Below, piece after piece: positions 197 to 37,544 of a DNA stretch of 41,153 bases. Source of the DNA: Candidatus Zixiibacteriota bacterium (GTDB lineage: Bacteria > Zixibacteria > MSB-5A5 > GN15 > FEB-12). Positions within the stretch are counted from its first letter, which is position 1; every line of letters begins with the position of its first letter. The position numbers and the translations under genes were made by a program. The notes below the pieces were generated by a model. The model did no database searches. It was not told the origin of the DNA and saw only the letters and a program-made list of their open reading frames with translations. Where the stretch lies: the NCBI GenBank assembly GCA_024275255.1, contig JAJRZL010000164.1, positions 1-41,153 on the forward strand, read 5' to 3'.

Positions 197-2437
197 CTAC
201 TTGCTGACACAGCCTGCCAATGGATCCGGACCACCGCCAAACAAGTAGGAAACAAGGTAAGTAATGTCATTGACATTAATATCACAGGAACCATCGACAT
301 CTGCACTGTTGATTTCACCGGGTGCCGGACCACCACTGAACATGTAGGCAACAAGGTACGTAAGGTCTGCAACATTAACCACACCATTACCATCGACATC
401 ACCGGGCACATAAGCCCCCGGTGCAATATAGATAGTGTACTCAGCCACATCAGTGTACCCGGTTCCCATATCATTCAGAGCCACGGTAAAGGTAAAGTAG
501 CCGGTATCGGGTGTTACACCACTGATTATCCCGCGATTATCAAGGGAATACCCGGAAGGAAGCGATCCACTATCAATAGTCCAGGTATAGGGTCCGGTAC
601 CGCCGCGATAATCCAGTGAATCTTTGTACGACAGATACTGTACGCCATTATCGAGTTCGTCATTAAGAGTAATAATGTGCATGTGCCAGAGCTGCTGTGT
701 TTCATATTTCAGCACCCAATTCATCGGGTCAAGGCTCATCCCGGTGACATCAACGGGAAAGTTGAGCTTAAATCGGGTACGGCGTTTATCGACTTGAAGT
801 GTCAGCGTATCATTGGGACCGGTAACATAGAAATCCACGGGCATGATAAATACCTGCGGATTGGTTGTTTGAATCTGTTCAACATACACATAGACATCAT
901 ATCCGGTACTATCCGAAACTTCCGACCAGTATGACCAATTATAGTTCGGTCGATATTCACCGTGAATCCATTCATCAAAGAACCAGTCAAGCTCAACCCC
1001 GGTAGCCGCTTCAAATACATTCTTGAAATCTTCCGTGGTTGCCGAGGCATATTGATACTGTGAGTTATAGTATGAATGGACACCTTCAAAAAACAGGGAG
1101 TCACCAAGTACCCCTCGTAACATGTGCACCACCCAGGCGCCTTTGTCATAGGACCGTGCGCTGAAAATACCCCACACGTCGGTGGTATCCTGAATATAGA
1201 TTGTTCCCCCGCTTGTTCCCCCAGAGGAAGAAGCCATATCATTCATATAATCATGGTAACTTGCCCAGCCGTCTTTTTCGAGATAATACAACGCTTCGGA
1301 ATACGATGCCCACCCTTCATTGAGCCAGATATCCTGCCATGACTCACAGGTAATCATATCTCCCCACCATTGGTGTGACAACTCATGCACAACCACCGGC
1401 TCTGAAAACCCAAAAGAGCTGCCTGCCATTGATGTCATGGTCTGGTGTTCCATTCCCCCACCCCAGGTGAAATTGGCATGGCCATATTTCTCTTGGGTGA
1501 ATGGATACAAACCGTATTGGTCAGAAAATATGGTTAATGCCTGCGGGGTTATACCATACCGCGGCAATGAATAAGTATAAAACAGGGGAAAAACGGCATT
1601 GACAATCGGCATTGTATCCTGACCACTATTATAAACCCATTCATCATACCATACGGTATAAGCATGAATAGCTACCGAGAATAAATAAGTGACCATCGGA
1701 TAGCGGACACTATAATAAAACGTATGTGTGTTGGCACTGCTGATAACAGTCGAGTCGAGGGTTCCGTTGGAAGCTACGTAATACGTGGTGTCAACTTCGA
1801 TGGCAATATTGAAAGAATCAGCTTTGTCATCCATCCGGTCTTTACAGGGCCACCAGGTACGGGCAAAATATGGCTCGGACAAAGAAGAAATCATTTTGAC
1901 ACCATTGTAGATATCAAATGAAAAAGCCTGGAACCCGCCCTCTGTGGGATGCCCATGATAGTAAAAATCAAACTCAAACTGCTCACCGGTGTTATAGGTG
2001 GCATCGATAATAACTGTCACCACATTATTTGACCGGGTATAGCCCAGTTCTCCCGATGGGGCGATAATAGAATCAACAATCATATTATCATAGAAATCGA
2101 CCTGCACGGACGTCACCCCATCTTCCGCAGCAAGCGCAACAAACTTCACATCACCATAGAGAATTTCCGTGGTATCATTTACCCGGATAAAAATATCATA
2201 GAACAAGACATCATAATTCGTCTGAGTAACATCGGCTTCATTTAACGCATAGTTTGCGACGAAATTCTTCTCGATTCGGGAAGCAACCTTGCCTTCCCAA
2301 AGTTTTTGATGAATGACTGATGGTGGCGCCTGATCCCAATCGACAGCGTCATCGGCGGCTATGGCTGCTATTACAGGGATACAAAAAGCGATAATAAGTG
2401 CGAGGAGTATCCTGGCATGCACGGTTGTAAATCTCAC
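197..2437 (-). CDS. Secreted M1-family zinc aminopeptidase with Ig-like (He_PIG-like) domain and C-terminal dockerin-type domain
   Basis: GGMEH (GAMEN-like) motif, HELSH-x18-E (WLNEG), YDKG motif; signal peptide; PYTWTIDSGSLPSG Ig-like segment; duplicated GDVDG...DLTYLV.Y.F.GGP at the C-terminus. Start moved to GTG at 2437, which follows a GGAGG RBS. Confidence 0.9.
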   Translation of the reverse strand: MRFTTVHARILLALIIAFCIPVIAAIAADDAVDWDQAPPSVIHQKLWEGKVASRIEKNFVANYALNEADVTQTNYDVLFYDIFIRVNDTTEILYGDVKFVALAAEDGVTSVQVDFYDNMIVDSIIAPSGELGYTRSNNVVTVIIDATYNTGEQFEFDFYYHGHPTEGGFQAFSFDIYNGVKMISSLSEPYFARTWWPCKDRMDDKADSFNIAIEVDTTYYVASNGTLDSTVISSANTHTFYYSVRYPMVTYLFSVAIHAYTVWYDEWVYNSGQDTMPIVNAVFPLFYTYSLPRYGITPQALTIFSDQYGLYPFTQEKYGHANFTWGGGMEHQTMTSMAGSSFGFSEPVVVHELSHQWWGDMITCESWQDIWLNEGWASYSEALYYLEKDGWASYHDYMNDMASSSGGTSGGTIYIQDTTDVWGIFSARSYDKGAWVVHMLRGVLGDSLFFEGVHSYYNSQYQYASATTEDFKNVFEAATGVELDWFFDEWIHGEYRPNYNWSYWSEVSDSTGYDVYVYVEQIQTTNPQVFIMPVDFYVTGPNDTLTLQVDKRRTRFKLNFPVDVTGMSLDPMNWVLKYETQQLWHMHIITLNDELDNGVQYLSYKDSLDYRGGTGPYTWTIDSGSLPSGYSLDNRGIISGVTPDTGYFTFTVALNDMGTGYTDVAEYTIYIAPGAYVPGDVDGNGVVNVADLTYLVAYMFSGGPAPGEINSADVDGSCDINVNDITYLVSYLFGGGPDPLAGCVSK

Positions 2438-2544
2438 GAGTTCCTCCAGAAAAGAACAATTATGTACTATACTGTTGATTACATACAAAAAACTCAGAGC
2501 TGCCAGTAAACATTGAAACTATTGCGCTCCAAGTCTTATGTATA

Positions 2545-2572
2545 AAGGTATAAAATATACTTGTTTTGTCAA
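2545..2572 (-). promoter_or_regulatory. Putative sigma70 promoter for the M1 peptidase
   Basis: TTGACA-N16-TACCTT on the - strand, downstream of the terminator at 2662-2698. Confidence 0.45.
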
Positions 2573-2661
2573 GGTTTTTACTCTTTTTCCTCTTTACCAA
2601 CTATTTCTATTATTAAATACGGCATGTAAGAATCGATTATTTAGCAGGTTTATCTATTCCG

Positions 2662-2698
2662 AAAAAAAGAGTCGCCGTTAGTTACCTAACAGCGACCC
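2662..2698 (-). terminator. Intrinsic terminator after the 782-aa gene
   Basis: - strand GGGTCGCTGTTAG-GTAA-CTAACGGCGACTC-TTTTTTT. Confidence 0.8.
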
Positions 2699-2723
2699 AG
2701 CCAACAAAGTGTATGTTATCTTC

Positions 2724-5072
2724 TTACTTGAATGGATTCCCACAAGGTATGGGACCACTTTCAAAGAAGTAATGAACGAAATACGTCAAATCTTCGATAT
2801 TCACTGTATGGTCACAGTTGAGATCACCAACAAAATATTCCGGCTCCGGTCCCGGTCCACTCTGGAAGAGGTAATCAACAAAATAGGTCAGGTCCGAAAC
2901 ATCAATGACCCCGTCATAATTCATATCACCATGGAACCGCCATACCCGGAACAAGAGGTCAACCTTCACCGGGCTGTTCGATGCCACGGTTGAAGTGACA
3001 AAGAAAGAATCAGGGTATTCACCAAAGAGATACCCGGTGGCATCGGCATTAATACTTACCCCTTTCGGATTTGTACCGGAGGAGTCAGAAGGTGTCATCC
3101 AGGGAACATCTTCGACAATCGCCCAATCCATACAACCGCCAAACTTGTTGTGAATTTCCAAAGCGCTCGGTGGTACCGGACCGGAATTTTCCTGAGCCGG
3201 TATCACAAAGCTGTAGCGGGAAAGATGGATTTCCGGTGTTTCCGTACCCGGAATCACCTCGTATTTCACAATCAATGTTTCAGGATTGTTGATTGCCTTC
3301 TGGGCAACGATTTCTATCGTATCAAAATACACCCCAACAGGTAAATTAAGATAAGCGGAACGGGCAATTACCAGACCGGGCGCTTCATTGGAGATAGCGG
3401 TCAGTTCAAACAAATCGGACTCATAGACCAAATCAAATGTCATCGGGTCGTCACCACCGACATTCAACACCTGGAATAATGCTGTCGGGGGATCGACACC
3501 GGCACCCATCTCACATTCATATAAAGTGAACCGGAGCGTATCGGTTGTCAGGTTTATTTGTGCCGGGTTGTCCACCAGGTGGAACTGGAATACCACCGGG
3601 AACGGCGAGTTGATAGCCTCGTTGGAATAGACCCACAAAGTATCAAAGTAATCATCACCCGCGCTGCCACCAGTTAGTTTGAACGTCACTTCCACATCCT
3701 GCGGAGCAACCCCGGAGTCAGGATTCATCGTAAAGAGACGAGGTGAATTTTCTTCAAGCCAGAAGTTCATCGTACCGGCACCGCCATTTTTGACCAGTAT
3801 CGTCCGCGGGTCAACTTCACTGACACCGGTCGGCACCACGACAAAATTAAATGCGGAATCGACTTCAATAATCGGTAAGTCGGATCCAATAGATAGTGAC
3901 ACCATCACCGATTCAGGGCTGTTGGTGGCATTGGGATCGGAAATAACGATATAATCCGTATAATTTCCAAACGGTAAACCGGTAATATCAACCGACACCG
4001 TCACATCAACCGAATCAACACCGGATGTTGGTGACAATGACAGCCAGCTTTCACTATTCGTAGCAGTCCAGTTTAGTGTTTGTCCGCCATTGTTGTAAAT
4101 AGTCAGGATTTTATCACCCGGGTTTGCGCCCCCGGCAATGGCATTGAAGAAAAACTCCGTCGGGGTAACCCCGATAACCGGTGGTGGTTCTTCTACGGTC
4201 ATGGTTACTTTCACCCAGAGCGGCGAATTGTTTGCCTGTCCGGATTCTACCATGATAGAATCAATATATGTTCCTGCTGCAAGACCGATAGTATTGGGCA
4301 GCACCGTAATTTGCTGGGTAGTCGTTCCGGTAATGGGGCTGACGATAATCCAGGGAATATTTTCCACCAGGTTGAAATTGAGTGCGATGCCATCTGAGGC
4401 AACAGTGAAAGTCTGTGGTGGAGGAGTGCTCCCGTTTTCGATAGCATCAAAATGCAGCGAATCGGGGTTAACTATCAAGTTTGCCATGGAACAGGCAGTA
4501 TCACGAATGACAATTCTCCCGGTCCAGTACGGTACATATTCCGCGTTACCGGTTGTTACAAACTTCAACAAACTACTTGGGCTGAACAACAATGTATCCA
4601 GCACAATAGAATCACAAACCTGCCAGTCAGATAAGGTGAAATAATAACTTGCCCAAAGCTGGCGGGTCGGGTTGGCAGTGACACCGGCGCCAAAAATAAC
4701 CGCGGCGCCAAAGATAAACCGCTGGTTCGTGTTGGTCAGGTTAATATCATCGTCTTCATAGAAAAACGGACCAATATCAAAACCGGCATCAGTCATTGGT
4801 GATGCAACCGCACTATCCATCTGCAAATTCGAGTTTTCCCAGGCAAAACCCGAGGATACACCAATGATACTGTTGGCATCATCAAAAACCCATAAATCTG
4901 CCTGAACCTGCAACTGATTAGTCGTATAATCCGGAGTTACTGAAAATACTATTTCGATAGTATCGGCAGCACCAAGATCATCGGGGTCCTGAGTAAACTG
5001 TGCCTGTACAGGCAGCGCCAAAGCAAGTATTCCACACAGCAAGGTAAGGAAAAAGACATTACGAAATTTCAT
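2724..5072 (-). CDS. Secreted non-catalytic multidomain protein: N-terminal cohesin-like beta domain, five BACON-like repeats, C-terminal dockerin-type domain
   Basis: Signal peptide (VQA|Q); five ~100-aa repeats ending in A-x-N-(S/N)-P-x-x-(V/L), several with W(L/I/M)-x-x-(S/T)-P-like segments; duplicated Ca-loop dockerin motif; GGAGG RBS; no catalytic motif seen. Confidence 0.8.
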   Translation of the reverse strand: MKFRNVFFLTLLCGILALALPVQAQFTQDPDDLGAADTIEIVFSVTPDYTTNQLQVQADLWVFDDANSIIGVSSGFAWENSNLQMDSAVASPMTDAGFDIGPFFYEDDDINLTNTNQRFIFGAAVIFGAGVTANPTRQLWASYYFTLSDWQVCDSIVLDTLLFSPSSLLKFVTTGNAEYVPYWTGRIVIRDTACSMANLIVNPDSLHFDAIENGSTPPPQTFTVASDGIALNFNLVENIPWIIVSPITGTTTQQITVLPNTIGLAAGTYIDSIMVESGQANNSPLWVKVTMTVEEPPPVIGVTPTEFFFNAIAGGANPGDKILTIYNNGGQTLNWTATNSESWLSLSPTSGVDSVDVTVSVDITGLPFGNYTDYIVISDPNATNSPESVMVSLSIGSDLPIIEVDSAFNFVVVPTGVSEVDPRTILVKNGGAGTMNFWLEENSPRLFTMNPDSGVAPQDVEVTFKLTGGSAGDDYFDTLWVYSNEAINSPFPVVFQFHLVDNPAQINLTTDTLRFTLYECEMGAGVDPPTALFQVLNVGGDDPMTFDLVYESDLFELTAISNEAPGLVIARSAYLNLPVGVYFDTIEIVAQKAINNPETLIVKYEVIPGTETPEIHLSRYSFVIPAQENSGPVPPSALEIHNKFGGCMDWAIVEDVPWMTPSDSSGTNPKGVSINADATGYLFGEYPDSFFVTSTVASNSPVKVDLLFRVWRFHGDMNYDGVIDVSDLTYFVDYLFQSGPGPEPEYFVGDLNCDHTVNIEDLTYFVHYFFESGPIPCGNPFK

Positions 5073-5208
5073 TATTTCGCCTCCATGCAGCTTAAATGAA
5101 TTATGTGTTGTTTTTCTTCATATATAAAAGATAAGTCAATAGCTACGTGATATTTTAAGTAAATAAAAAAGTGGTGAATAAGATTATCCCGTACCAATAT
5201 CGTCCCAA

Positions 5209-5388
5209 GCATTGAAATCAAACTCCCGTTACACGTCAACTCTTGTACCTGCCGAACCCCAGGGATTGGAGTAAACACCTGTTTTCTATCTCCTTCCCAC
5301 TGAGCCACCAACTATACGATTATTTCATCATGCGTTAGTCGTAAATGAAGTCACAAGGTTGACGTCCAAAAGATCATCGACCCAACAA
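5209..5388 (-). ncRNA. Candidate structured non-coding RNA or cis-regulatory leader (unassigned family)
   Basis: Long-range inverted repeat 5233-5246/5353-5365 enclosing two G-U-containing hairpins on the - strand; promoter immediately upstream; U-tract downstream near 5162-5170. Confidence 0.45.
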
Positions 5389-5392
5389 CCAC

Positions 5393-5422
5393 AATATAGG
5401 AAAGAATAGTACCAACTGTCAA
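5393..5422 (-). promoter_or_regulatory. Putative sigma70 promoter
   Basis: TTGACA-N18-TATATT on the - strand, directly after the lon terminator. Confidence 0.55.
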
Positions 5423-5425
5423 GTC

Positions 5426-5473
5426 AAAATGTCGTTAGCAGTTCATTACCCCAAGAGCTGCAACGACATAAAA
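5426..5473 (-). terminator. Terminator hairpin after lon
   Basis: ATGTCGTT(A)GCAGTTC...GAGCTGCAACGACAT stem flanked by short A-runs, directly after the lon stop. Confidence 0.65.
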
Positions 5474-5476
5474 GAT

Positions 5477-7993
5477 TTAACGTTCCTTCTTTCCTGTTTT
5501 TTTCGCTGTTGAAGTCGAGCGTTTTTTTGATGTACGTGTCTTTCTTTTCCGAGCTTTCTCAATCTCTTCGGCAAATATCTTCTCTAATGTGTATGATGAC
5601 GGGGTAAAATCAAGCAGGCACAACTCAAAAAGTTCATCAACCCGCTCAATATACGTTAACTTGGTTTTACGGAGAATCTCTCTCGGTAAGTCCTTGACAT
5701 CTTTTGCATTCTCTTTCGGCAACGCTACATGGTAAATCCCCGCGCGATATGCTGCCGAGACTTTCTCTTTAATCCCCCCCACCGGTAACACTCTTCCCCG
5801 CAACGTAACCTCGCCGGTTACCGCAATGTCATTCCGAATAGGACGTTCAGCCATGACCGATGCAATCACCAGGCAGACCGTTACCCCGGCTGACGGGCCA
5901 TCCTTGGGAATCGCACCGGAGGGAAAATGGATATGAATGTCAAAATCATTAAAGTCCGAGAAATCAATACCAAGCACATCAGCTTTCGAGCGAACATAAG
6001 AATGCGCCGCCTGTATCGACTCCCGCATCACTTCACCCAGTGAACCGGTTGTGGTTATCTGCCCATCTCCCTTCATTTTCAAGCCTTCAATAAACATGAG
6101 ATCACCACCGGCACCGGTCCATGCCAGCCCGGCAGCGGTTCCGATTTCGGGTGAACTGACCGCACGTTCCGGTATGTATATCGCCGGTCCAAGGAATGTT
6201 TCAAGATTCTTCTCACTGATAGTCCATGATTTTTTTGGTTTCTCTGATTTCGCCAGGGCAATCTTTCGGCAAATCTTTTCAATCTGCTGGGAGAACCCCA
6301 ACAAACCGGCTTCCATCGTGTAGTTCGTAATGATTTTTGCCAGCACCTTATCGGAAAACTTAACTTCCGAACGCAACAAACCATGCTTCTGAAGCAGACG
6401 GGGAATGATATACTTTTTGGAAATGACAATCTTTTCTTTTTCGATATATCCCGGTAATTCGATAATTTCAAATCGTGGGATAAACTGCTCCGGTATCTCC
6501 TCGAATGTCCGCACGGAACAGATAAAAAACACTTTACTCAAATCAAACGGCACCCCGATATACCGGTCGAGAAACTTGGAGTTCCAGCGGGTATCGATAG
6601 CTTCCAGAAGTGCCATATTGAGAGAGGAATCGTTATCCATGTTAAAATAATCAATATCCTCTATCAACACCACCGGATCGCAGGTCCCGGCTTCCCGCAA
6701 TGTTCTGATTATCTTGCCCGGCATAGCGCCAAGGAATGTTCGAGGGGAGCCTTTTAGTTCGGTCACATCGGAAATTCCTCCCACAGAAATCCGAATGAGC
6801 TTTTTCCCAAGGGCATTGGCAATGGCTTTCGCCAGCGATGCTTTCCCCGTACCGGGTGCACCAACAAGACACAGGGTAGGACCTTCGTTTATCCCTCCCA
6901 TCAACTTGCGCACCGACAACCGCTGCAGGATTTGTTCTTTTAACATGACCGGTCCGTAATACTGAGAAGAAAGCACTTTGGAAGCATCAGAAATTTGATA
7001 GTCCTCCGGTTTGCATTTCCCCCAGGGCAGAGATAGTATCCAGTTCAGGTAATTCTTGGTGACACCATATTCTGCCGATGCCGGCGGTAACTGGGTGAGC
7101 CTGTCGATTTCAATATTTGCCCGGGCGACTACTTCTGCCGGTAAACCGGTCATATTTTTCATAATATGCCGAAAACGATTCGCTTCCCGTTCCTCGGAAA
7201 AATCCTCACCGAGCTGACGCCGGATTTCATATAATTGCTGCTGAAGATACTGCCGTCGCGTGGCTTCTTCTATATTCTTTTCCACATTTTGTTCAATCCT
7301 GCGGGCAGTGGCAACCTTGTTCAGTTCCGTGTTGAGGTAAAACAACAACCTGTCGTATCTCATGTTCAGATTGATCGTTTCGAGTATTTCCTGTTTTGCC
7401 GTGAGTGGAAAATGAAAGGTTGATGCCACTCGGTCGGCAAACAGTGAAGGGTCGTCCTGGTCCAGTTTCAACACGAAAAGCTGTTCCGAAGAATAGATAG
7501 GGTCAAGATGGACAATTTCATTGATAATAGACAGGACCTCGTTGATTTTGTCCTTTATCCCCCGCTTTATGGATGTCGGTGTTTGTATGTCATGGGCAAT
7601 TACCGTGATAAACGGCTCACGACTCAGGATAGTATTAATAGCAACCCGACGTTGCCCTTCGATAGTGACTGAGAGCGATTCCCCCAAGCCCTTTTTATAA
7701 TCACGAGGAACAGCTATCACCCCAACCTGATGAACCCCCTCTCCGTTTCCATCATCATTCGGATCAGCATTTGAAAACGAAGCTACGAACTCCTGTTTTT
7801 TTTCAAGACAGTAGTTGATGAGCCTGAGATTTTCGGGGCGTCCGACCTGAAGAGTCATAATCATACCGGGAAATAGTACTCCGGTTCGCAAGGGTAACAG
7901 CGGGTATTGTTTTTCCGTATCTGTTACAACAATCGGAATCCGGTTTTTTGATTTTATGATAATATTATCCGTTTTTTTCTGCACGCTATGCAA
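5477..7993 (-). CDS. lon: Lon (endopeptidase La) family protease with a degenerate AAA+ module
   Basis: Lon N-domain (LPLR..VLFPG), LPWG, AAA+ region, protease domain HIHFPSGAIPKDGPSAG and GGIKEK (Ser-Lys dyad). Confidence 0.92.
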   Translation of the reverse strand: MHSVQKKTDNIIIKSKNRIPIVVTDTEKQYPLLPLRTGVLFPGMIMTLQVGRPENLRLINYCLEKKQEFVASFSNADPNDDGNGEGVHQVGVIAVPRDYKKGLGESLSVTIEGQRRVAINTILSREPFITVIAHDIQTPTSIKRGIKDKINEVLSIINEIVHLDPIYSSEQLFVLKLDQDDPSLFADRVASTFHFPLTAKQEILETINLNMRYDRLLFYLNTELNKVATARRIEQNVEKNIEEATRRQYLQQQLYEIRRQLGEDFSEEREANRFRHIMKNMTGLPAEVVARANIEIDRLTQLPPASAEYGVTKNYLNWILSLPWGKCKPEDYQISDASKVLSSQYYGPVMLKEQILQRLSVRKLMGGINEGPTLCLVGAPGTGKASLAKAIANALGKKLIRISVGGISDVTELKGSPRTFLGAMPGKIIRTLREAGTCDPVVLIEDIDYFNMDNDSSLNMALLEAIDTRWNSKFLDRYIGVPFDLSKVFFICSVRTFEEIPEQFIPRFEIIELPGYIEKEKIVISKKYIIPRLLQKHGLLRSEVKFSDKVLAKIITNYTMEAGLLGFSQQIEKICRKIALAKSEKPKKSWTISEKNLETFLGPAIYIPERAVSSPEIGTAAGLAWTGAGGDLMFIEGLKMKGDGQITTTGSLGEVMRESIQAAHSYVRSKADVLGIDFSDFNDFDIHIHFPSGAIPKDGPSAGVTVCLVIASVMAERPIRNDIAVTGEVTLRGRVLPVGGIKEKVSAAYRAGIYHVALPKENAKDVKDLPREILRKTKLTYIERVDELFELCLLDFTPSSYTLEKIFAEEIEKARKRKTRTSKKRSTSTAKKTGKKER

Positions 7994-8091
7994 CCTATAA
8001 TTAGATAGTTCTTTTTGGCAAGGTGGCGTAAAAACAACGGAGTGTCAATTTTAATTTATACTCCCGCAAATGATTGTATCCACACCACAGC

Positions 8092-8131: not shown

Positions 8132-8187
8132 GGGGGAAAGTGGACAAGGGAATTTTTTATTCCGGCAGTCAGGCAACCGCTAACCTC

Positions 8188-14500: not shown

Positions 14501-14503
14501 CGC

Positions 14504-23483: not shown

Positions 23484-25436
23484 TCAATCTTCCTCATAGC
23501 GGCGCTGTATACGGGCTAACACATCCGGGTCTGCCAGCGTTGTCGTATCACCGAGGAGTTTACCGGTGGCAATATCCCGTAAGAGACGTCGCATTATCTT
23601 ACCGGAACGAGTTTTGGGTAATTCGGGAGCGTTGATAATACGTTCGGGTCGTGCAATGGCTCCGATTTTGCGGGCAACAAAATCTCTTAATTGCCGGGAG
23701 ATTATATCATCAAACGTTGTCTCTCCCCCAAGCGTAACAAAAGCAACCAGACACTGCCCTTTGAGTTCATGCGGGATTCCCACCACCGCCGCTTCCACTA
23801 CGGCATTGTGTTCCACCAGAGCAGATTCAACTTCCATCGTGGAAATTCGATGCCCAGCGGTATTGATAACATCATCAACGCGCCCCAGTATCCAAAAGTA
23901 TTTATCCTTGTCTATTTTCGCCCCATCTCCGGGGAAATATATTCCATCCCACTTTGACCAGTAGGTTTCTATAAATCGTTTTCTATCACCCCATATTCCC
24001 CGTAACATTCCGGGCCACGGCTTCGTAATCGCAAGATACCCGCCACCTTCTTTAATTTCTCTGCCCTGTTCATCAAGTATTTTGGCTTCGATTCCCGGAA
24101 ACGGCCGGGTTGCAGAACCGGGTTTGGTAGCGGTAACACCCGGCAAAGGAGTAATGAGTATATGCCCGGTTTCCGTTTGCCACCAGGTATCAACAATGGG
24201 GCATTTTTTATTCCCGATATGTTCATAGTACCACATCCAGGCTTCGGGATTAATCGGCTCACCGACTGTGCCAAGCAAACGCAACGTGCTCAGGTCATGT
24301 TTCCGTGGAAATTGCTCACCCCACTTCATAAAAGCACGGATAGCAGTAGGTGCCGTGTAGAAAACAGAAACGCCGTAATCTTCAACAATTTGCCAGAAAC
24401 GATCTTTGTCGGGCCAATCCGGCGCTCCTTCGTACATAACCTGTGTCACTCCCATCGCCATAGGACCATACACGATATATGAATGTCCGGTAATCCAACC
24501 GATATCGGCAGTACACCAGAAGACATCATCACCTTTGACATCAAACACATACTTCGTTGTAGCGTACACACCGGTTAAATATCCCCCGGTAGTATGCATG
24601 ATGCCTTTTGGTTTTCCGGTTGTTCCCGAAGTATACAAGATGAAAAGCGGGTGTTCACTGTCAACAGAGACAGGGGGGCAGTGAGCATCGGCTTCCTGCA
24701 TCATGCGATGATACCAATGATCGCGCCCTTCCTTGAAACGCAGCAAGAAATCCCCACGCTTGATAATAATCACATCGGTAACCGAGGGACATTCATTCAG
24801 AGCAACATCAGCATCATGTTTCAATGGAATAATCTGCCCTCTTCGATATCCACCATCAGCCGTGATAAGCAGCTTGGCTTCCAAATCCAGAATACGGTCA
24901 CGTAATGATTCAGGAGAAAACCCACCAAAGACAACTGAATGGATAGCGCCAATTCGGGCACAGGCAAGCATGGAAATAACCAGTTCCGGTATCATCGGCA
25001 GGTAGATAGCAACACGGTCTCCCTTGCGAATACCCAAACTCTTTAGTACGTTTGCAAATTTACAGACCTGCTTATACAGTTCATAATACGTCAGCGTTCT
25101 CCTGTCGCCGGGCTCGCCTTCCCAGATAAATGCCGCCTGGTTCTTGCGTCCTTCCTCAATATGTCGGTCAAGGCATGACTCGGTGACATTCAGTTTACCG
25201 CCCACGAACCATTTTGCATCGGGAGCTTTCCACGTCAATCCTTTTTTCCACTTTTTCTTCCATACCAGTTCCGAGGCAAGGTTCTCCCAGAACTTCACAT
25301 AATCTTTTTTTGCTGTAGTATATATTGATTTTTTCGCATTCGCCTGCCTGGCAAAGCTGCTCGATGGTTTGAATTTCCGTTTTTCTGTCAGCAAGGTATC
25401 GATAGTGGCTGCTTTTGTTCCTTTTTTAGATAGCAT
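23484..25436 (-). CDS. acs: Acetate--CoA ligase (AMP-forming acetyl-CoA synthetase)
   Basis: [37 protein letters not shown]. Confidence 0.95.
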
Positions 25437-25633
25437 GGTATTCTCCAGTCAATACGGATTCTTTCTATCTATATTATATAAAAACAGGCATGTTTGAAAT
25501 CAACAATTATCGTGTGGGCTTTATCAGGAGAAGATTGATGAGGGAACCATACTACAGGAGTCATGTACTCCTGACCATGATAACAAGATACATCAGGGCA
25601 GATATAGTGACCTGCCCAAGATGTGAACACGCC

Positions 25634-26845
25634 TTATTGCGATACCTGCTCTGAAACAATCCGCAACGTATCACGGGCAATCATCAGCTCTTCGTTAGTG
25701 GGAATTACCAGCACTTTTACCCGGCTGTCGGTTGATGATATTTCCGTTTCCTCTCCTTTCACCGCAGCATTCTTTTCGGTGTCAATTTCAAGTCCAAGGT
25801 AATCCAACCCTTCACAACTCTTTGCTCGCACATCGGGGGCATTCTCCCCCACCCCTCCGGTAAAGACCAGGGTGTCAAGCCCGCTCATTGCCGCCGAGTA
25901 AGCACCAATATATTTTTTCAGACGGTAGCAAAATACATTGAATGCCAGTTGTGCCCGTTTGTTACCGCTGTTTGCCGACTCAATTATTTCCCGGACATCG
26001 GAAGAAACCCCGGAGATACCAATAAAACCGGAATGTTTGTTCAAAAGGGTGTTGGCTTCATGGAGAGAAAGCTCCTCACGAGCCATGATATGCAGGATAA
26101 TCGCCGGGTCCATATCACCGGAACGGGTACCCATCAGCAACCCCTCAAGCGGAGTAAATCCCATCGAAGTATCAATAGATACCCCGCCGTCAATTGCCGC
26201 CACCGAGGCGCCGTTTCCAAGATGCGCCGTAATTAACTTCATTCCTGACAGCGGTCTCCCAACCATCGCCGCCGCCCGTTCACTGACGTACCGGTGTGAC
26301 GTACCATGAAACCCGTACCGGCGAATCCCATATTTTTTATACAGGAGATACGGGATACCATAAATGTAAGCATAATCGGGGATATGATGATGAAACGCCG
26401 TATCGAACACTGCTACCTGAGGAATGCCCGGCAGTGTTTTCATACAGGCGTTGATACCGCGGATATTATGCGGATTGTGCAGAGGGGCAAGCTCTATCAG
26501 TGAACGCAACTCCGACATGAGTTCCTTTGTAATCAATACCGACTCGGTGAATTTTTCTCCACCGTGGACGACCCGATGACCGACTGCCTGAATTTCCGAG
26601 CGGTCCGAAATGACTCCATGATTTTTTGACATCAAGATGGATACGACATATTCAATGGCAACAATATGATCGAGAATTTCCGCCGTTACTTTCGTCTCCG
26701 GACGGTCATACGGTTTATGAGTCAAGACGGATGCCGACATTCCTATTCGCGCGACATTTCCCTTTGCCAGCGCAAGTTCCTGTTCCGTGTCGATGAGCTG
26801 ATATTTCACCGACGAGGACCCACAATTTATAACGAGGATTTTCAT
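25634..26845 (-). CDS. ackA: Acetate kinase
   Basis: MKILVINCGSSS, GHRVVHGG, APLHNP, FDTAFH, YGFHGTSH, TNEEL; start at second ATG by family consensus and RBS spacing. Confidence 0.95.
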   Translation of the reverse strand: MKILVINCGSSSVKYQLIDTEQELALAKGNVARIGMSASVLTHKPYDRPETKVTAEILDHIVAIEYVVSILMSKNHGVISDRSEIQAVGHRVVHGGEKFTESVLITKELMSELRSLIELAPLHNPHNIRGINACMKTLPGIPQVAVFDTAFHHHIPDYAYIYGIPYLLYKKYGIRRYGFHGTSHRYVSERAAAMVGRPLSGMKLITAHLGNGASVAAIDGGVSIDTSMGFTPLEGLLMGTRSGDMDPAIILHIMAREELSLHEANTLLNKHSGFIGISGVSSDVREIIESANSGNKRAQLAFNVFCYRLKKYIGAYSAAMSGLDTLVFTGGVGENAPDVRAKSCEGLDYLGLEIDTEKNAAVKGEETEISSTDSRVKVLVIPTNEELMIARDTLRIVSEQVSQ

Positions 26846-26884
26846 TTGGTACATCTCCCTAACCGAACTGAATCAAGCGCCGGT

Positions 26885-29623: not shown

Positions 29624-29667
29624 TTGGACGGGCAAATCTCACTGGTGTTAGATATTTAACTCATCAA

Positions 29668-29693
29668 TAGAGCTACTCATTAGAGCTACTCAT
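29668..29693. repeat. Perfect 13-bp tandem duplication
   Basis: TAGAGCTACTCAT x2. Confidence 0.9.
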
Positions 29694-29797
29694 TATTTTA
29701 CGATAGATATCTAAATTCTCCCATTCTTTCAACCTTGACAGGTCTCCGCTCTCCCGATATATTCGCCAAAAGATTCAACGTAAAAGGAAACAGAAAA

Positions 29798-30493: not shown

Positions 30494-30517
30494 TCTGCAC
30501 CACATGGCAAATATACC

Positions 30518-30548
30518 AGCGGCGGGATACGAACTGTCCCGCCGTTTT
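30518..30548 (+). terminator. Intrinsic terminator after the cyclophilin gene
   Basis: GCGGCGGGATA-CGAAC-TGTCCCGCCGT-TTT. Confidence 0.7.
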
Positions 30549-30607
30549 AATTCAGGCATTTTCCGGAGGGAACACCGTTTTCATAATGCTGTTATACCGG
30601 TATTGAC

Positions 30608-31771: not shown

Positions 31772-32835
31772 TTAATATTGCATCATTTATTTTTGTCCTT
31801 GGTATCTTAGTTTTTGTCCACGAATTGGGGCATTTCCTCATTGCGAAAAAAGTAGGTATCCGGGTGGAACGGTTTTCCCTTGGATTTCCTCCCAATATCT
31901 TTGCTCGCAAATGGGGTGAAACCACCTATTGTATTGGTATTATCCCTCTCGGTGGATATGTCAAAATGGCCGGCGAACAGCCGAATGAAGAGGCTACCGG
32001 CGCTCCCGACGAGTTTATGTCCAAGACGGTAGGACAACGAATGGCGGTTATTCTTGCCGGTCCGTTTATGAATTACCTGCTGGCTATTTTCCTGTTAATC
32101 GGGGTCGTGTATTTCAATGGTGAGCCGCTTTTCGATGACAGCCGGGTTTTGGTCGGCAACATCAGTAAGGACAGTCCCGCCGAAAAGGCCGGGTTGCAGG
32201 TTGATGACCAAATTATCGCTATTGACGGGGCACCGGTGGAAAACTTTATCGACGCCGCAAAACGTATTCATGCCAAGGTTGAAGAACCGATAGACCTGAC
32301 CTGGGTTCACCAGGGTGAAACACTTCGAGCAACAATCACGACAAAAGCCATGCCGATGCCGAATGCGTCGGGGGGGATAGATACGGTCGGTATTATTGGG
32401 TTCAACCAGAAGGTTGTCGGATATAAAAAATTCGGTGTATTCGAATCTGTCAGCCAGGGATTTCTCTGGGCACATAGCCTCGTCTGGCAGACATTCAAGT
32501 TTATCAAAATGGTCTTTGCCGGTGAGGTCTCCCCGAAAATGATTGGCGGGCCGGTCTTTATTGCGCAACAATCCGGCAAGCAGGCTCGTGCCGGTGGCGC
32601 CAGTTTGTTTGTATTCATGTCACTGCTTTCAGTCAACCTTGCGGTAGTCAATATCCTGCCGATTCCCGTTCTTGATGGCGGGCAGATGGTATTCCTTATT
32701 ATCGAGAAGGTGCTTGGCAAGCCAATTTCCATGAAAGCTCGGATAACTGCTCAACAAGTGGGTATTTTTATCCTGTTAGCATTGGTGTTGTTTGTAACAT
32801 ACAATGATATCTTACGGGTTATCCGGGGATTTTAG
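31765..32835 (+). CDS. rseP: RIP metalloprotease RseP
   Basis: HELGH, PLGGYVKM, AGP..N, PDZ domain, NILPIPVLDGG. Confidence 0.95.
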   Translation: MLVNIASFIFVLGILVFVHELGHFLIAKKVGIRVERFSLGFPPNIFARKWGETTYCIGIIPLGGYVKMAGEQPNEEATGAPDEFMSKTVGQRMAVILAGPFMNYLLAIFLLIGVVYFNGEPLFDDSRVLVGNISKDSPAEKAGLQVDDQIIAIDGAPVENFIDAAKRIHAKVEEPIDLTWVHQGETLRATITTKAMPMPNASGGIDTVGIIGFNQKVVGYKKFGVFESVSQGFLWAHSLVWQTFKFIKMVFAGEVSPKMIGGPVFIAQQSGKQARAGGASLFVFMSLLSVNLAVVNILPIPVLDGGQMVFLIIEKVLGKPISMKARITAQQVGIFILLALVLFVTYNDILRVIRGF

Positions 32836-32938
32836 CATGAACACCTTGTCTTACATACCCAAGAAAAACAAAACATTTTATTTTTATTGCCGGTATAATG
32901 ATATATAAACAGGTACGTGAAGATAACTTACAGGATAA

Positions 32939-33652
32939 GTGAAAAATATGAGCAAGAAGCAGTCAAGCCCGTTTTGGGACAATTTTAAGCAGATAGCATT
33001 CGCCGTTATTATGGCGTTTATTATAAAGACCTCAATCGTTGAGGCATACAAAATCCCCTCTCAATCAATGGAGGATACCCTCCTGGTTGGAGATTTTCTC
33101 CTGGCAAACAAGTTTATCTATGGCGCCCGGTTACCCGTGGTTGGCTGGCAGCTTCCGGCTATCCGTGATCCGAAAGCGGGTGATGTTATTATTTTCATCT
33201 ATCCCGGTGACGGTGTCACCAAGTATATCAAACGTTGTGTGGCAACCGGTGGTGATACGCTTGAGATAAAGGACAAGATTTTATATGTAAACGGGAAAAA
33301 ATTCCCGGAAGCAAAGTATCAGAAATACATCGATCCGAATATTCAACCCCGAAGACCCGGCGGACTTGACAGCAGGGACAATTTTGGTCCTTATGTCGTT
33401 CCTCCCGGTAAATACTTCATGATGGGTGACAACCGCGATAACTCCTACGATTCCCGGTACTGGGGACCGGTCCCCCGACAGAATATCCTCGGCAAAGCAT
33501 TGCTCATTCACTGGTCATGGGATGATTCCATATACCCATCACCAGATGTTTCTGTCGGTGATCCCTTATCGGTACCGCGTGTTTTTGTATTCAATATTGT
33601 GCATTTTTTCCAAAAAGTGCGCTGGCACCGATTATTTCATACGATTTCATAA
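32939..33652 (+). CDS. lepB: Signal peptidase I
   Basis: IPSQSMEDTLLVGD, YIKR, MMGDNRDNSYDSRYWG; start may be ATG 32948. Confidence 0.95.
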   Translation: MKNMSKKQSSPFWDNFKQIAFAVIMAFIIKTSIVEAYKIPSQSMEDTLLVGDFLLANKFIYGARLPVVGWQLPAIRDPKAGDVIIFIYPGDGVTKYIKRCVATGGDTLEIKDKILYVNGKKFPEAKYQKYIDPNIQPRRPGGLDSRDNFGPYVVPPGKYFMMGDNRDNSYDSRYWGPVPRQNILGKALLIHWSWDDSIYPSPDVSVGDPLSVPRVFVFNIVHFFQKVRWHRLFHTIS

Positions 33653-33784
33653 ATAGTATGAAATTGCGAACTGACAGATGCTCATATTGTATAACATCAT
33701 AATAAAAGAACAAAATTAACCATTTGAGAGTCTATGCCGAAAAACATATCAGGAGACATATCTGTCAGAAGAGGAGTAGATTCA

Positions 33785-34504
33785 ATGCAAGTGACCAAAA
33801 GTGTTTTGTTTACCACTATCCTGTTTATCATCCTTTCGTCAGCCGCCTTTGCCGGACCGGCAATTGAAATACCCAATGCCAGCTTTGACTTTGGTAAAGT
33901 TCGTCAACATGCGGTGGTAAGCCACTCGTTTTGGATTAAATCAGTAGGTGATGACACTCTTCATATTACAAAAGTAGTTCCGGGGTGTGGATGCACCAAA
34001 GCACCGCTGGAGGATTCTGTTCTTGCTCCGGGTGACAGCACCCGGCTGGATATCTTTTTCTCCACTCGCTCTTTTCGGGGATATGTAACGAAACGCCCAT
34101 ACCTTGAAACAAACATTAGCGATGAAAAAACATATCTCAAAATCTATGCGCTGCTTTTACCCGAACCGGAAAAAGACACCCCGTTGGTTATCAACCCCAA
34201 CCCGCTTGATATATCCCAGTTTACTGATCTACCCCGTCGAAAAGGTACGTTTCTGATTGAAAACCGTAGCAACCACGATGTAGAGCTCACCCTTATTGAC
34301 TGGGCACGGGATTATTTCGATGTCAAGCTGCCTAAAAAAATAAAAGCCGGCGAAGCGGCTCAGGGAACAGTCACTATTCATAAGGATAAAATCCCCGAAG
34401 AGTTCGAACATTCTTTGACATTCCAAATCAATGACGACAAACAAACCAGATACACCCTTCCCGTAAAACGGGTAGTCCGTATAAAAAAACGTATTGGAAG
34501 CTGA
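33785..34504 (+). CDS. Secreted DUF1573-domain protein
   Basis: Signal peptide, FDFG.V, L.I.KV.PGCGCT..., LAPGDS; GAGGAG RBS before ATG 33785. Confidence 0.75.
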   Translation: MQVTKSVLFTTILFIILSSAAFAGPAIEIPNASFDFGKVRQHAVVSHSFWIKSVGDDTLHITKVVPGCGCTKAPLEDSVLAPGDSTRLDIFFSTRSFRGYVTKRPYLETNISDEKTYLKIYALLLPEPEKDTPLVINPNPLDISQFTDLPRRKGTFLIENRSNHDVELTLIDWARDYFDVKLPKKIKAGEAAQGTVTIHKDKIPEEFEHSLTFQINDDKQTRYTLPVKRVVRIKKRIGS

Positions 34505-34532
34505 CAGAATTATTGCATACAAATAGTCAATG

Positions 34533-34564
34533 AAAAGCCGGTATCTTATGATTCCGGTTTTTTT
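34533..34564 (+). terminator. Intrinsic terminator, possibly bidirectional
   Basis: AAAAGCCGG...CCGGTTTTTTT. Confidence 0.75.
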
Positions 34565-34610
34565 ATAGAGTTTTTCCAATAAATTAACACCCTGTTATTA
34601 GTTTTCGCAG

Positions 34611-34652
34611 GTCGGTGTTCCGAATCCGCCGAAGGCAGATGGGAAACCCGAC
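34611..34652. repeat. Palindromic hairpin (REP-like) between convergent genes
   Basis: GTCGG-TGTTCC..ATCCGCC-GAA-GGCAGAT-GGGAAAC-CCGAC. Confidence 0.5.
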
Positions 34653-34811
34653 ATATTCAAGGTTTACTGTTTATTTATATACAAAAAAATATGTTGGGGT
34701 TTTATTACACTTCCAAAAGCACTTACCCACATTAATTTTCTCAACAAATCTGCTGATTGATGCCCCCATAGAAATAATTACAAATGTACCAAGCTATGTT
34801 CCAACTATCCA

Positions 34812-37544
34812 TCACAACATATAGTAACATGGTTCGGGACCACCACTGAACAAGTATGCCACCAGATAGGTAAGGTCGGCAACATTGATATCATCCAGAC
34901 AATCAATATTGCCTGCTTCATACGGTATCGGATCGGGTCCACCGCTGAACAGGAACGCTACCAGATACGTAAGGTCGGCAACGTTTAATCCCGGTTCACC
35001 ATCCATATCACCCGCCTGTGCCCATTGATACCCGGTATTATGAAACAGCACAGCTTCGTTGTTGGATATAACATGCTCCGGGGGAACACCATTGTTGTAG
35101 TAGCTCAAGGCATGACATTCAAATTCCGAGATACCCACCAGGGCGGTCAATTCCAAGCCGCTAACCCCAACATCACGGTATTGATAGATAATATCCCCGA
35201 AACGAGTAAGGATTATTTCAAAGTTCATGGTGGTATCACCAAACTGGTTAAAATTCGCCGGGTGATACCATTCGATAACAAGCATGTCATTGGCAGGACT
35301 TTGGTAAATATAAATCCCGCCATCGGCAACCGTCCCCTCATCAAAGATTAAATCAGCCCAGAAAGGAGCAATAAAGGTTTCAAAGGGTGCTCCCGGCACT
35401 TCAAGACCGCTATAAAACCCACCAATATTGAGATTAGAGTCAGTAAACGAAATCGCACCGTTTACACCGATAAATACTTCCGTATAACTGGTGTCATAAA
35501 AGGGAAAGCTGAAATTAATATCCCAGGGACCGGTCGTGCCATCATCAAGCGGATTTGTTCCCGATGAATAAAAAAGCGATGAGGGAACCTTAAACCCGAT
35601 ATCCTTTGCAGAAATCCAGTTATATGACGGCCCCCCCGTATCGACGGATGAAACGGCGATATATGTGGTATCAAAACAAGGAACTTCGAGAAACACCGGC
35701 ACGTACAACAACGAGTCGAGTACCCCTCCGGTGAGCCCCCAGCTTATTTCAAGGACTCCGGTATATTTCTCCACCCGGTCAGGTATTACGGAGGCATCTA
35801 CTGTCACTGCGATTGTTATAGAATCTGAGGGCGCAATAGTGCCGGTATTTGGTGTTGCTATCAGCCAGTTTTCCCCGACCCGTTTGGTAAGAGAGTCATT
35901 GTCGTTTATCTGAAAATCAAACGCTTCCGTTGTGGAACGGTTATGTAAAACAATATTCATTATCGCTTGAGAACCCTCATCAAGAGTGGTATCAAGGAAT
36001 AGTGGATTCACATAGAGTGATGGTGGTCCGGTAAGGGTTGCTATGGCAGCCTGAAGGTCTGGAAGGGGTCCGATATGTTCAGTCGTATCACCCATTTGAG
36101 GAGAACCGGTTGCAACCAGCACATCACGGATCTGGTCGGATGTCATCGGTACGCCACCGTAGGTTGCTTTATAATATCCCTGAAGACAGGCAACTGCTCC
36201 GGTAACTATTGGTGATGCCGATGAAGTCCCGCTGAATGCTGCTGTGTAGTACTGGTTCTCATCACCATTACCGTCAAACAAACCACCATATCCGGTAGTG
36301 TACACACCGGAACCATATCCTTGTAAATTTACTCGTTCACCGTAGTTTGAAAAATCCTGACGCCAGCGACTGTTAAGTGATGCCGCGGGGTATCCGGCTC
36401 CGACAATAATAGCATGGGAGTTTCGGTACGTGGTATCGAACAATGCACCATAGATAGTTGTATCGTCAAAATTCTCGGCACCATTTCCTGCAGCCTCAAC
36501 AACAGTAATCCCCTTTGCCCAGGCATACTGGATAGCATCGTAGTTTGCCTGCCAGTATTCCATACAGACATATCCGAGCTGATCGGGGCGGGATTGAAAA
36601 TCGTAGTGCGGACCGGGAGCATGTAATTCAATCAGGATAACATCACCGGCTTCCAACGAATCAATGGCAATGTAAAGTGCCGCTGCTGTCGAAATAGAGC
36701 CAATAGAAACCATCCGGATATCCGCTACGGGGCAGATACCGGTAACACCATAACCATTGTCACCAGCAATCAATTCCCCGATAACAGCCGTTCCGTGGTT
36801 CCGCCAGCTAATATCATTCAGTTCCACCCCACCGATTAACCCACCAACTGCTTTGTCCAAATCTTCATGGGTCTCCTGCCAGGCGCCTTCAATATCAACA
36901 ATCGTAACTCCTGCGCCATCACCACCCGGCAGGGTATTGGCGTAGTCGGCATCAATCCCACTGGGCGCAGCTTCCCTATAATCCTGGTTCGGTTGGTAAT
37001 CTGGTGTGGGCGGGTCGATATCCCCAGCAGGTTCCGGTGAAGGCTCCACATACGCTATTTCTACGATATCGAGTTTGTTCAACCGATTAACCAGCGCTTC
37101 CGCTTCAGCGACACTGGTAACAGTAATTTCATAGTAATTATTCAAATCCGCCAGTTCATGTTTTGATTGTAATTGCAAGACAGTACGAGCCTGTTCAAGT
37201 CTATCCTCAGGGGCAACCCTAAATAGCCGCTTCAGATTACTGAACGTAACATACTCATATACAATAGGTTCTATACCTGCTATACTCCCGCCTTTTCTAT
37301 CGACAAGCTTCCCTGCTTGTAATCGGACTGAGTATGAATCTCGAAATTTTACAACCACACGGTCAATTGAAGCTTCCGAATGTATTGTTACAAGTGTCGG
37401 TTTTTCAGGAAGTTGGCGTTTGACTAATGGATACAGTTCATGACTACCCTGTTGTTGCCGAGCAGCTTCACTTACTGGAGCAATTATCAGAATTATTATG
37501 GCGACAGACAACAAGGAAAGCAGTGCTATATTTCGAGATGACAT
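34812..37544 (-). CDS. Secreted S8 (subtilisin-like) serine peptidase with BACON-like, NIDO-like and dockerin-type domains
   Basis: Catalytic Asp (IVDIE), His (NHGTAVIG), oxyanion AAGNG, Ser (FSGTSSASP); prodomain; FPFY...NG.ISF...IAPFWADL; duplicated NVADLTYLVA.LFSGGP. Confidence 0.9.
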   Translation of the reverse strand: MSSRNIALLSLLSVAIIILIIAPVSEAARQQQGSHELYPLVKRQLPEKPTLVTIHSEASIDRVVVKFRDSYSVRLQAGKLVDRKGGSIAGIEPIVYEYVTFSNLKRLFRVAPEDRLEQARTVLQLQSKHELADLNNYYEITVTSVAEAEALVNRLNKLDIVEIAYVEPSPEPAGDIDPPTPDYQPNQDYREAAPSGIDADYANTLPGGDGAGVTIVDIEGAWQETHEDLDKAVGGLIGGVELNDISWRNHGTAVIGELIAGDNGYGVTGICPVADIRMVSIGSISTAAALYIAIDSLEAGDVILIELHAPGPHYDFQSRPDQLGYVCMEYWQANYDAIQYAWAKGITVVEAAGNGAENFDDTTIYGALFDTTYRNSHAIIVGAGYPAASLNSRWRQDFSNYGERVNLQGYGSGVYTTGYGGLFDGNGDENQYYTAAFSGTSSASPIVTGAVACLQGYYKATYGGVPMTSDQIRDVLVATGSPQMGDTTEHIGPLPDLQAAIATLTGPPSLYVNPLFLDTTLDEGSQAIMNIVLHNRSTTEAFDFQINDNDSLTKRVGENWLIATPNTGTIAPSDSITIAVTVDASVIPDRVEKYTGVLEISWGLTGGVLDSLLYVPVFLEVPCFDTTYIAVSSVDTGGPSYNWISAKDIGFKVPSSLFYSSGTNPLDDGTTGPWDINFSFPFYDTSYTEVFIGVNGAISFTDSNLNIGGFYSGLEVPGAPFETFIAPFWADLIFDEGTVADGGIYIYQSPANDMLVIEWYHPANFNQFGDTTMNFEIILTRFGDIIYQYRDVGVSGLELTALVGISEFECHALSYYNNGVPPEHVISNNEAVLFHNTGYQWAQAGDMDGEPGLNVADLTYLVAFLFSGGPDPIPYEAGNIDCLDDINVADLTYLVAYLFSGGPEPCYYML

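Follow-up and report, generated by a model that had tools for sequence, protein, structure and literature searches.

Dockerin tags, cohesin-fold modules and a type IX secretion system in a Zixibacteria genome: a candidate cell-surface display of peptidases

Three secreted proteins with a common C-terminal module

The stretch of 41,153 nucleotides analysed here, called the window in what follows, is a contig of a Candidatus Zixiibacteriota bacterium (JAJRZL010000164.1 of assembly GCA_024275255.1; contig C103 in our numbering) and encodes three secreted proteins, P0001, P0002 and P0003, that end in the same duplicated calcium-loop/helix module, referred to below as the tag. The genome amounts to 2.87 Mb in 338 contigs and is 95.8% complete. 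The tag is a genuine, diverged dockerin of type-I-like character, which recurs at the ends of dozens of proteins of this genome and is accompanied there by diverged cohesin-like modules and by the machinery of a type IX secretion system (T9SS). Taken together, these features make it probable, on balance, that peptidases are displayed at the cell surface by dockerins plugged into T9SS-anchored cohesins.

A preliminary description of this DNA had placed three open reading frames (ORFs) on the minus strand, each with a signal peptide at one end and the tag at the other, and had assigned peptidase activities to two of them. These ORFs are real, the tags lie where they had been placed (Table 1), and the catalytic identities were upheld by Pfam, with matches of P0001 to Peptidase_M1 (1.9e-32), Peptidase_M1_N (4.7e-13) and He_PIG (1.2e-6) and of P0003 to Peptidase_S8. 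P0002 contains BACON_2 repeats. The N-termini resemble signal peptides in P0002 (MKFRNVFFLTLLCGILALALPVQAQ), in P0003 (MSSRNIALLSLLSVAIIILIIAPVSEA) and in P0001 (VRFTTVHARILLALIIAFCIPVIAAIAA), the last being obtained when translation starts at an internal GTG near nucleotide 2437, which is likely the true start.

Table 1. Features of the window; positions are counted from its first letter.
Feature	Position	Strand	Description
P0001	197..2488	-	Secreted M1 aminopeptidase, He_PIG Ig domain, C-terminal dockerin
P0001 dockerin tag	200..403	-	aa 696-763; Cys in loop 2 and C-terminal GC
P0002 (782 aa)	2724..5072	-	Signal peptide, predicted cohesin-fold module, BACON-like Ig repeats, dockerin
P0002 cohesin module, family C (predicted fold)	4491..4997	-	Roughly aa 26-194; without Pfam cohesin match
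P0002 dockerin tag	2727..2930	-	aa 715-782; Dockerin_1 18.7 bits, below cut-off
P0003	34812..37544	-	Secreted S8 subtilase (Peptidase_S8 3e-17), C-terminal extension, dockerin
P0003 region between S8 domain and dockerin	35022..36032		aa 505-842; unannotated
P0003 dockerin tag	34815..35012	-	aa 845-910; no Pfam Dockerin_1 match
Terminator-like hairpin	2669..2698	-	13-bp stem, T7 tail, just past the P0002 stop
Terminator-like hairpin	141..171	-	After P0001
Acetyl-CoA synthetase and acetate kinase	23484..26854	-	Adjoining genes

The dockerin nature of the tag, which had been proposed for all three proteins, is recognised by the Pfam model Dockerin_1 (cut-off 22.9 bits) in P0001, with 30.8 bits; the tags of P0002 and P0003 fall short of it. 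A profile of 56 tags compared with the Protein Data Bank (PDB) returned 32 matches, nearly all of them to solved dockerins (best E-value 3.5e-7) with a tail of calmodulin and parvalbumin. AlphaFold2 (AF2) modelled the P0001 tag with a mean confidence (pLDDT) of 92.7 and with helices at residues 17-28, 37-40 and 50-62. When this model was compared with the PDB by Foldseek, the top 33 matches were all dockerins, with template modelling (TM) scores of 0.44-0.78 and 16-35% identity. The first 28 of them have TM 0.62-0.78 and root-mean-square deviations of 1.4-4.0 Å, the best reaching TM 0.77-0.78 at 1.4-1.5 Å. Direct reading and alignment of the window tags confirmed two loop-helix repeats of the proposed form in each, that is, two tandem F-hand calcium-binding loop and helix segments of about 22 residues. 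In the dockerin numbering, aspartate or asparagine occupies loop positions 1, 3, 5, 9 and 12 in five of the six loops, and in the remaining one, loop 2 of P0003, position 5 is a leucine. The tag profile and the tag model also match 8x39/8x3a, the double-dockerin module of the C. thermocellum serine protease Clo1313_0689, which indicates that classical cellulosomes carry proteases too.

The alignment separates the tags into three subtypes with a conserved cysteine pair in each, by which the tag is probably stapled. The major subtype has 16-residue loops with the motif RGNVDG, a PPC linker and a C-terminal cysteine; the second has canonical 12-residue loops with N- and C-terminal cysteines; the third, common to the three window proteins, has one cysteine in loop 2 and another near the C-terminus.

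The other genes of the window are of a housekeeping kind and comprise Lon, a DEAD helicase, a TPR protein, a TonB-like protein, a flippase, a Na/H exchanger, an amidophosphoribosyltransferase-like protein, acetyl-CoA synthetase and acetate kinase. The last two adjoin and fit a fermentative or acetate-handling metabolism that is unrelated to the tag. P0003 lies 30 kb from P0001 and P0002, so that the three tagged genes do not form one unit, and their housekeeping surroundings indicate that they are dispersed representatives of a larger set and not a locus. The unannotated region of P0003 matched Atlas clusters (score 0.90) that contain NIDO and HYDIN/ASH Ig-like domains, a lead to an Ig-like and NIDO-like extension. 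Some of these clusters, recorded from Fidelibacterota, contain Dockerin_1 as well, which is a lead, and as yet a lead only, to the tag in other phyla of the Fibrobacterota-Chlorobiota-Bacteroidota (FCB) group.

Tag carriers and cohesin-like modules in the genome and the phylum

The size of this larger set was determined with a hidden Markov model (HMM) built from the three window tags and searched against the 23,774 stop-to-stop ORFs of at least 50 amino acids in the genome. The preliminary description had proposed such a count as a check, and it returned 60 carriers (E-values 2.6e-40 to 8.7e-4), with domains extracellular in type and many peptidases; two more iterations retained the same 60. 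The tag lies within eight residues of the ORF end in 58 of them, a recurrence far beyond chance. The two exceptions are C192:5806-6801 (L041; 332 aa), where the tag stands directly behind the signal peptide and is followed by 180 residues, making this the sole clear non-C-terminal tag in a protein without a T9SS C-terminal domain (CTD), and C297:797-5326 (L072; 1510 aa), where a family A cohesin-like module and an internal tag are followed by a terminal T9SS CTD, making this the sole protein with both types of end. Pfam detects Dockerin_1 (E≤1e-3) in 10 of the 60 carriers.

The cargo was assigned by Pfam scans of the 60 carriers, at E≤1e-3 for all of them together and at E≤1e-5 for three sets of 20. 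Peptidases of 10 families make up at least 18 of the 60: S8 (six), C25 (three), C1 (two) and C10, M1, M14, M43, M4 and M28 (one each), with InhA-like peptidases found once at the stricter and three times at the looser threshold. The earlier claim that the cargoes are peptidases thus stands for the M1 and S8 proteins of the window and, genome-wide, for about one carrier in three; the other carriers consist largely of repeat, propeller or adhesin-like proteins. Amidase_3 also occurs, as do PKD, TSP3, FG-GAP, BNR, Kelch, cadherin-like and lectin-like modules. The Pfam families listed for the carriers, which for the third set of 20 are 25 of 41, include no glycoside hydrolase. A crude signal-peptide rule was satisfied by 46 of the 53 carriers whose N-terminus is on the contig but also by 179 of 400 control ORFs, and is therefore weak evidence; that the cargo is extracellular follows mainly from its domain content. 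The carrier genes are clustered: 24 of the 60 lie less than 1 kb from a further carrier, whereas 200 random placements gave 4.7 such cases on average and 14 at most. Contigs C84 and C167 each have a series of dockerin genes that leads straight into a gene for a cohesin-like protein with a T9SS CTD.

Candidate cohesin-fold partners, for which a search had also been proposed, are present in this genome. Iterative searches within it gave three diverged cohesin-like families on 29 ORFs, with about 30 modules in all. Family A comprises 15 full modules on 14 ORFs and a fragment on an ORF cut by a contig end; cohesins account for eight of the nine PDB matches of its profile (best E-value 5e-4). Family B is found on eight ORFs, and all eight PDB matches of its profile are cohesins (best E-value 0.009). 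Family C is found on six ORFs and includes the N-terminus of P0002. Its profile had no matches among PDB sequences, so that its link to cohesins comes from the fold search and from hhalign, by which it aligns with family A at 96.6% probability (E-value 5.8e-10); family B aligns with family A at 87.8%.

The family C fold was modelled from an alignment of 34 sequences from relatives, while families A and B are linked to cohesins by profile only. For residues ~25-195 of P0002, close to the stretch (~25-190) to which the preliminary description had pointed, AF2 gave an all-beta model with pLDDT 94.2 and a predicted TM score (pTM) of 0.89. Foldseek returned 81 PDB matches for it at E≤1e-3 (best 3.5e-7). 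The matches listed have TM 0.5-0.77 and belong to cohesins of types I, II and III, the one exception being a domain of the CLIPPER adhesin at rank 43; identity to solved cohesins in the listed fold alignments is 4-14%. The N-terminal segment of P0002 is thus predicted to fold as a cohesin, and the order of modules in this protein would be like that of an adaptor scaffoldin. A prediction of the complex of the P0002 cohesin module (34 alignment rows) with the P0001 tag (56 rows) and two calcium ions, run without controls, scored 0.25 and 0.24 against a mark of 0.32, which speaks neither for nor against binding.

The 29 cohesin-bearing ORFs are distinguished by how they end: 14 end in the tag, eight in a T9SS CTD, one has both and six have neither. 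Five of these six are cut by a contig end, which means that all complete cohesin proteins but one end in the tag or in a T9SS sorting domain. Cohesin and dockerin occur in one chain in at least nine family A carriers, among them an S8-PKD-cohesin-dockerin protein on contig C177, in three family C carriers and in two of family B. The proteins of contigs C312, C145, C153, C38, C309 and C164 (L033, L088, L089, L085, L086 and L087) share a family B cassette, in which a cohesin-like module with a cysteine-rich insert (GGFD..CGWEYFT..CP..DCGDN) is followed by an internal, canonical-looking second dockerin pair (GDLNLNG..YEIAD ... SDVNADG), before the protein terminates in a T9SS CTD or the tag.

The tag is conserved throughout the lineage. 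All 41 genomes of the order have it, with between 19 and 147 matches per genome, as do 78 of the 81 genomes sampled from the phylum Zixibacteria, where counts per genome reach at least 74. Family C is present in 20 of the 41 genomes of the order, this one included, and among 1.84 billion cluster representatives it had 448 matches at E≤1e-3, whose lengths cluster at ~260-300, ~780 and ~1400-1650 amino acids. In a few of them the module is repeated four or five times in tandem; P0123, of 1948 residues, has five family C modules and P0124, of 894 residues, has four, so that polyvalent, scaffoldin-like forms of this family exist outside this genome. Public records name the orthologs of P0002 (more than 120, of ~780 aa, with 42-69% identity and mostly from Zixibacteria) hypothetical or BACON proteins and give a cohesin annotation to none of them. 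The gene directly upstream of the P0001 ortholog, in the same orientation, encodes the P0002 ortholog in 13 of the 19 other genomes that have family C, indicating that the adaptor-like protein and the M1 aminopeptidase are a conserved gene pair. The cysteine pattern of the tag is kept in 18 of the 20 M1 orthologs inspected, out of 46 matches in other genomes, down to ~40% identity. This indicates that the specific features of the tag are under selection, yet these do not vary together with P0002.

Proposed type IX anchoring and display of tagged enzymes

The same genome contains genuine T9SS sorting domains. The CTD model TIGR04183 has 41 matches in it, of which 37 are over the cut-off. None of the 41 lies on the window contig, and the Pfam domain Por_Secre_tail is absent from P0001, P0002 and P0003. 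The translocon protein SprA was found with 448 bits (582 when neighbours in frame are included) and the sortase PorU with 729 bits against a cut-off of 420; PorV-like matches, the best of which lies beside PorU, are all under the cut-off of their model. In Porphyromonas and Flavobacterium, the T9SS transports folded proteins, and those with a type A CTD are attached by PorU.

Cohesin-like modules and CTDs meet in proteins of minimal design. L077 (308 aa, with a family A module at residues ~41-175), L078 (301 aa) and L084 (303 aa, with a family C module) consist of a signal peptide, a cohesin-like module and a CTD, and a protein of 1108 residues has two family A modules and BACON repeats before its CTD. 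This design is found elsewhere, given that a set of 13 small proteins with a family C module, taken from 11 other genomes, comprised 12 with a CTD-type tail and one with the tag, and that Por_Secre_tail was found in all ten small family C proteins scanned from ten other genomes, in nine of them over the cut-off. A search of public records with the single anchor L077 gave matches at the level of the CTD only, in Bacteroidota and Balneolaceae.

Dockerins attach enzymes to cohesin scaffolds in clostridial cellulosomes, and an arrangement of this kind would account for the features described above. The dockerin would mark about 60 proteins exported by the Sec pathway, about a third of them peptidases. 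Proteins composed of a signal peptide, a cohesin and a CTD would be exported by the T9SS and fixed on the outer membrane surface by PorU. Further cohesins sit on proteins that themselves end in the tag, namely adaptors like P0002 and enzymes of the S8-PKD-cohesin-dockerin type. Dockerins would then plug into the T9SS-anchored cohesins in a calcium-dependent manner, either directly or through adaptors, and the outcome would be a cell-bound array of endo- and exopeptidases that scavenges proteinaceous particles.

The earlier proposal of such an assembly is supported in part, since the checks of fold, carriers and cohesin partners that it suggested came out in favour of dockerins and cohesins. 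Several results weigh against such a display. The binding of the tag by the cohesin-like modules, with its pairings and its dependence on calcium, as well as the surface location and the nutritional role, is proposed from fold and architecture. The Pfam model Cohesin (PF00963) has eight matches in the whole genome and none over its cut-off, the best scoring 23.7 against 24.1 bits; five of these eight are in ORFs with a terminal T9SS CTD and two in ORFs ending in the tag. There is no large multi-cohesin scaffoldin in this genome, where the most cohesin-like modules in one protein is two (contig C14), and only about 11 of the 41 CTD proteins have cohesin-like modules, against 60 dockerins. The M1 tag does not vary together with family C, given that M1 orthologs keep the window-type tag in ten of the ten genomes examined in which family C was not detected (E≤1e-10), so that co-variation does not single out P0002 as a dedicated partner of the M1 enzyme. 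The reading of P0002 and P0001 as a single operon is weakened, because a strong terminator-like hairpin lies between them and argues for separate transcripts. Finally, the tagged proteins have no CTD of their own, and this display provides no route by which 60 of them would cross the outer membrane to cohesins at the surface, which is its main gap. No clear type II secretion system (T2SS) was found in the 338 contigs: two secretins resemble PilQ (276 bits, cut-off 284) at least as much as GspD, a weak match to T2SS-L lies in the cluster of one secretin, and the match to T2SS-K was non-specific in controls.

The sub-threshold Pfam scores and the persistence of the window-type tag in genomes without detectable family C would also be expected if the tag bound something other than a cohesin, such as lipopolysaccharide, an S-layer, a capsule or the substrate, or if it stabilised its cargo through calcium. 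The cohesin-fold modules would then be Ig-like spacers or binding domains, and the enzymes would be kept near the cell with no plug and socket. The presence of a cohesin-like module in the same chain as the tag in 15 of the 60 carriers, often directly before it, as an ordinary beta-sandwich ahead of a C-terminus might stand, fits this explanation, and non-cellulosomal dockerins of unknown partner are reportedly widespread, as Peer and colleagues are said to have described in 2009. We nevertheless consider it unlikely. The fold matches of family C are specific to cohesins and not to generic Ig folds, and the profile matches of families A and B in the PDB are almost all cohesins. Moreover, spacers would not explain why the modules are confined, save for one complete protein, to proteins ending in the tag or in a CTD, nor why dockerin genes are clustered with cohesin-CTD genes.

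The gap at the outer membrane would close if the tag were an indirect T9SS secretion signal as well as an anchor. Tagged proteins, already folded, would bind cohesin-CTD carriers in the periplasm, cross the SprA translocon together with them and end up covalently tethered through the carrier. This would account for the lack of both a CTD and an evident type II pathway in 60 secreted proteins, for which no other route across the outer membrane is evident; the cohesin-CTD proteins are small and conserved, and the T9SS machinery is present. If it were true, one T9SS sorting domain could serve many cargoes, with ~2% of the proteome exported in this way. We know of no precedent for the co-transport of passengers by a T9SS, and the genome does have secretins that a T2SS-like route could use. 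Given the completeness of the genome and the number of its contigs, a T2SS could also have escaped assembly, and the conserved cysteine pairs, which fit periplasmic folding, do not discriminate between routes. Such hitch-hiking seems improbable.

The proteins that hold both modules could instead link head to tail, forming free, self-polymerising chains of enzymes that are released or carried by vesicles, and the carriers of all three families with cohesin and dockerin in one chain speak for this. We give it as little credence as hitch-hiking, given that nine ORFs join cohesin-like modules to a T9SS CTD, in a design conserved elsewhere, which points to the anchoring of at least part of the set to the cell. 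Chains and anchored display are compatible and do not exclude each other. As for the tag being itself a sorting signal like the T9SS CTD, an option that the preliminary description had left open, it is disfavoured because the tag is helical and not a beta-sandwich, and it was rejected as a stand-in because real CTDs, a full-scoring PorU and SprA coexist with it in this genome.

The display of peptidases on T9SS-anchored cohesins would have consequences beyond this genome. Should the modules bind in the way that their folds suggest, Zixibacteria would possess a phylum-wide, protease-dominated and T9SS-anchored analogue of the cellulosome, comprising ~2% of the genes. The Zixibacteria are a widespread uncultured phylum of sediment and groundwater, and the degradation of particulate protein at the cell surface would, if true, be a defining trait of this phylum. 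Standard annotation misses the system, since Pfam calls a dockerin in just those 10 of the 60 carriers and a cohesin in none. The three cohesin families and the three cysteine-stapled dockerin subtypes are predicted to form a plug-and-socket set that would be new and possibly orthogonal.

Comparison with known systems

A search of the literature that covered sources other than supplements and subscription journals found no paper that connects Zixibacteria with dockerins, cohesins or cellulosomes, or with T9SS and peptidases together. The closest precedent is the cellulosome-like complex described in silico for Ca. Stygibacter (Cloacimonadota), which was inferred from sequence and proposed to degrade polypeptides (Williams et al. 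2021, PMC8542988). It belongs to a Gram-negative member of the FCB group with signal-peptide proteins that end in dockerins, S8 and C25 peptidases among them, and a cohesin protein that ends in a T9SS-type CTD for surface attachment. The same ingredients were found here, namely tagged secreted peptidases, cohesin-CTD proteins and T9SS machinery, with PorV-like proteins below the cut-off. The complex is thus not new in kind. Ca. Stygibacter has a scaffoldin of 3,755 amino acids with tandem cohesins and CBM2/CBM3 modules, detectable by InterPro, and its cargo includes GH18 and GH57 (PMC8542988). In the Zixibacteria genome, by contrast, there are at most two cohesins per protein, in three families missed by Pfam, with many single-cohesin anchors of ~300 amino acids, enzymes that carry both modules and no glycosidase among the listed cargo. 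The number of tags, 60 here and reaching at least 74 in relatives, is also far larger than in Ca. Stygibacter.

A second precedent is the 'planctosome' of freshwater Planctomycetes (Nemodlikiaceae), a non-cellulosomal cohesin-dockerin machinery that was proposed to degrade polypeptides (Andrei et al. 2019, PMC6461901). It resembles the system described here in having an adaptor with dockerin and cohesin and a cargo of endo- and exopeptidases. Its anchor is a lamin-tail domain, its components are few and its cargo is M12B and M14 (PMC6461901), whereas here the anchor would be a T9SS CTD and the cargo is broad (S8, C25, C1, M1, M4 and M28).

The T9SS type A CTD (TIGR04183/PF18962) is comparable to the tag as a C-terminal mark on dozens of secreted proteins of the same genome, peptidases included. 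It is a beta-sandwich and not a helical calcium-binding pair, and its 41 ORFs and the 60 of the tag are separate sets save for one ORF.

Clostridial cellulosomes provide the best fold matches for both modules, as well as single-cohesin anchors (OlpA and OlpC of C. thermocellum; PDB 3ul4 and 4dh2), adaptor scaffoldins (PDB 4uyp) and the dockerin-bearing serine protease 8x39/8x3a. They also share the logic of enzyme with dockerin, adaptor with cohesin and dockerin, and anchor with cohesin and cell-wall module. They are Gram-positive systems with an S-layer homology (SLH) or sortase anchor, a cargo of carbohydrate-active enzymes (CAZymes), large polyvalent scaffoldins and modules recognisable by sequence. 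In contrast, the system described here belongs to a diderm and would have a T9SS anchor, a protease cargo and dockerins with a cysteine pair, the major subtype having loops of 16 residues instead of 12. Of the polyvalent scaffoldin, CAZyme cargo and Gram-positive wall anchor that make a cellulosome in the strict sense, none was found here, with at most two cohesin-like modules per protein, no glycoside hydrolase family among those listed and T9SS CTDs as putative anchors. What sets the system apart from the Ca. Stygibacter complex and the planctosome is the combination of cohesins in three families invisible to Pfam, anchors with one or two cohesins, many enzymes with both modules, dockerins with extended loops and a putative cysteine staple, an enzyme cargo that, as listed, consists of proteases only, and a phylum-wide scale.

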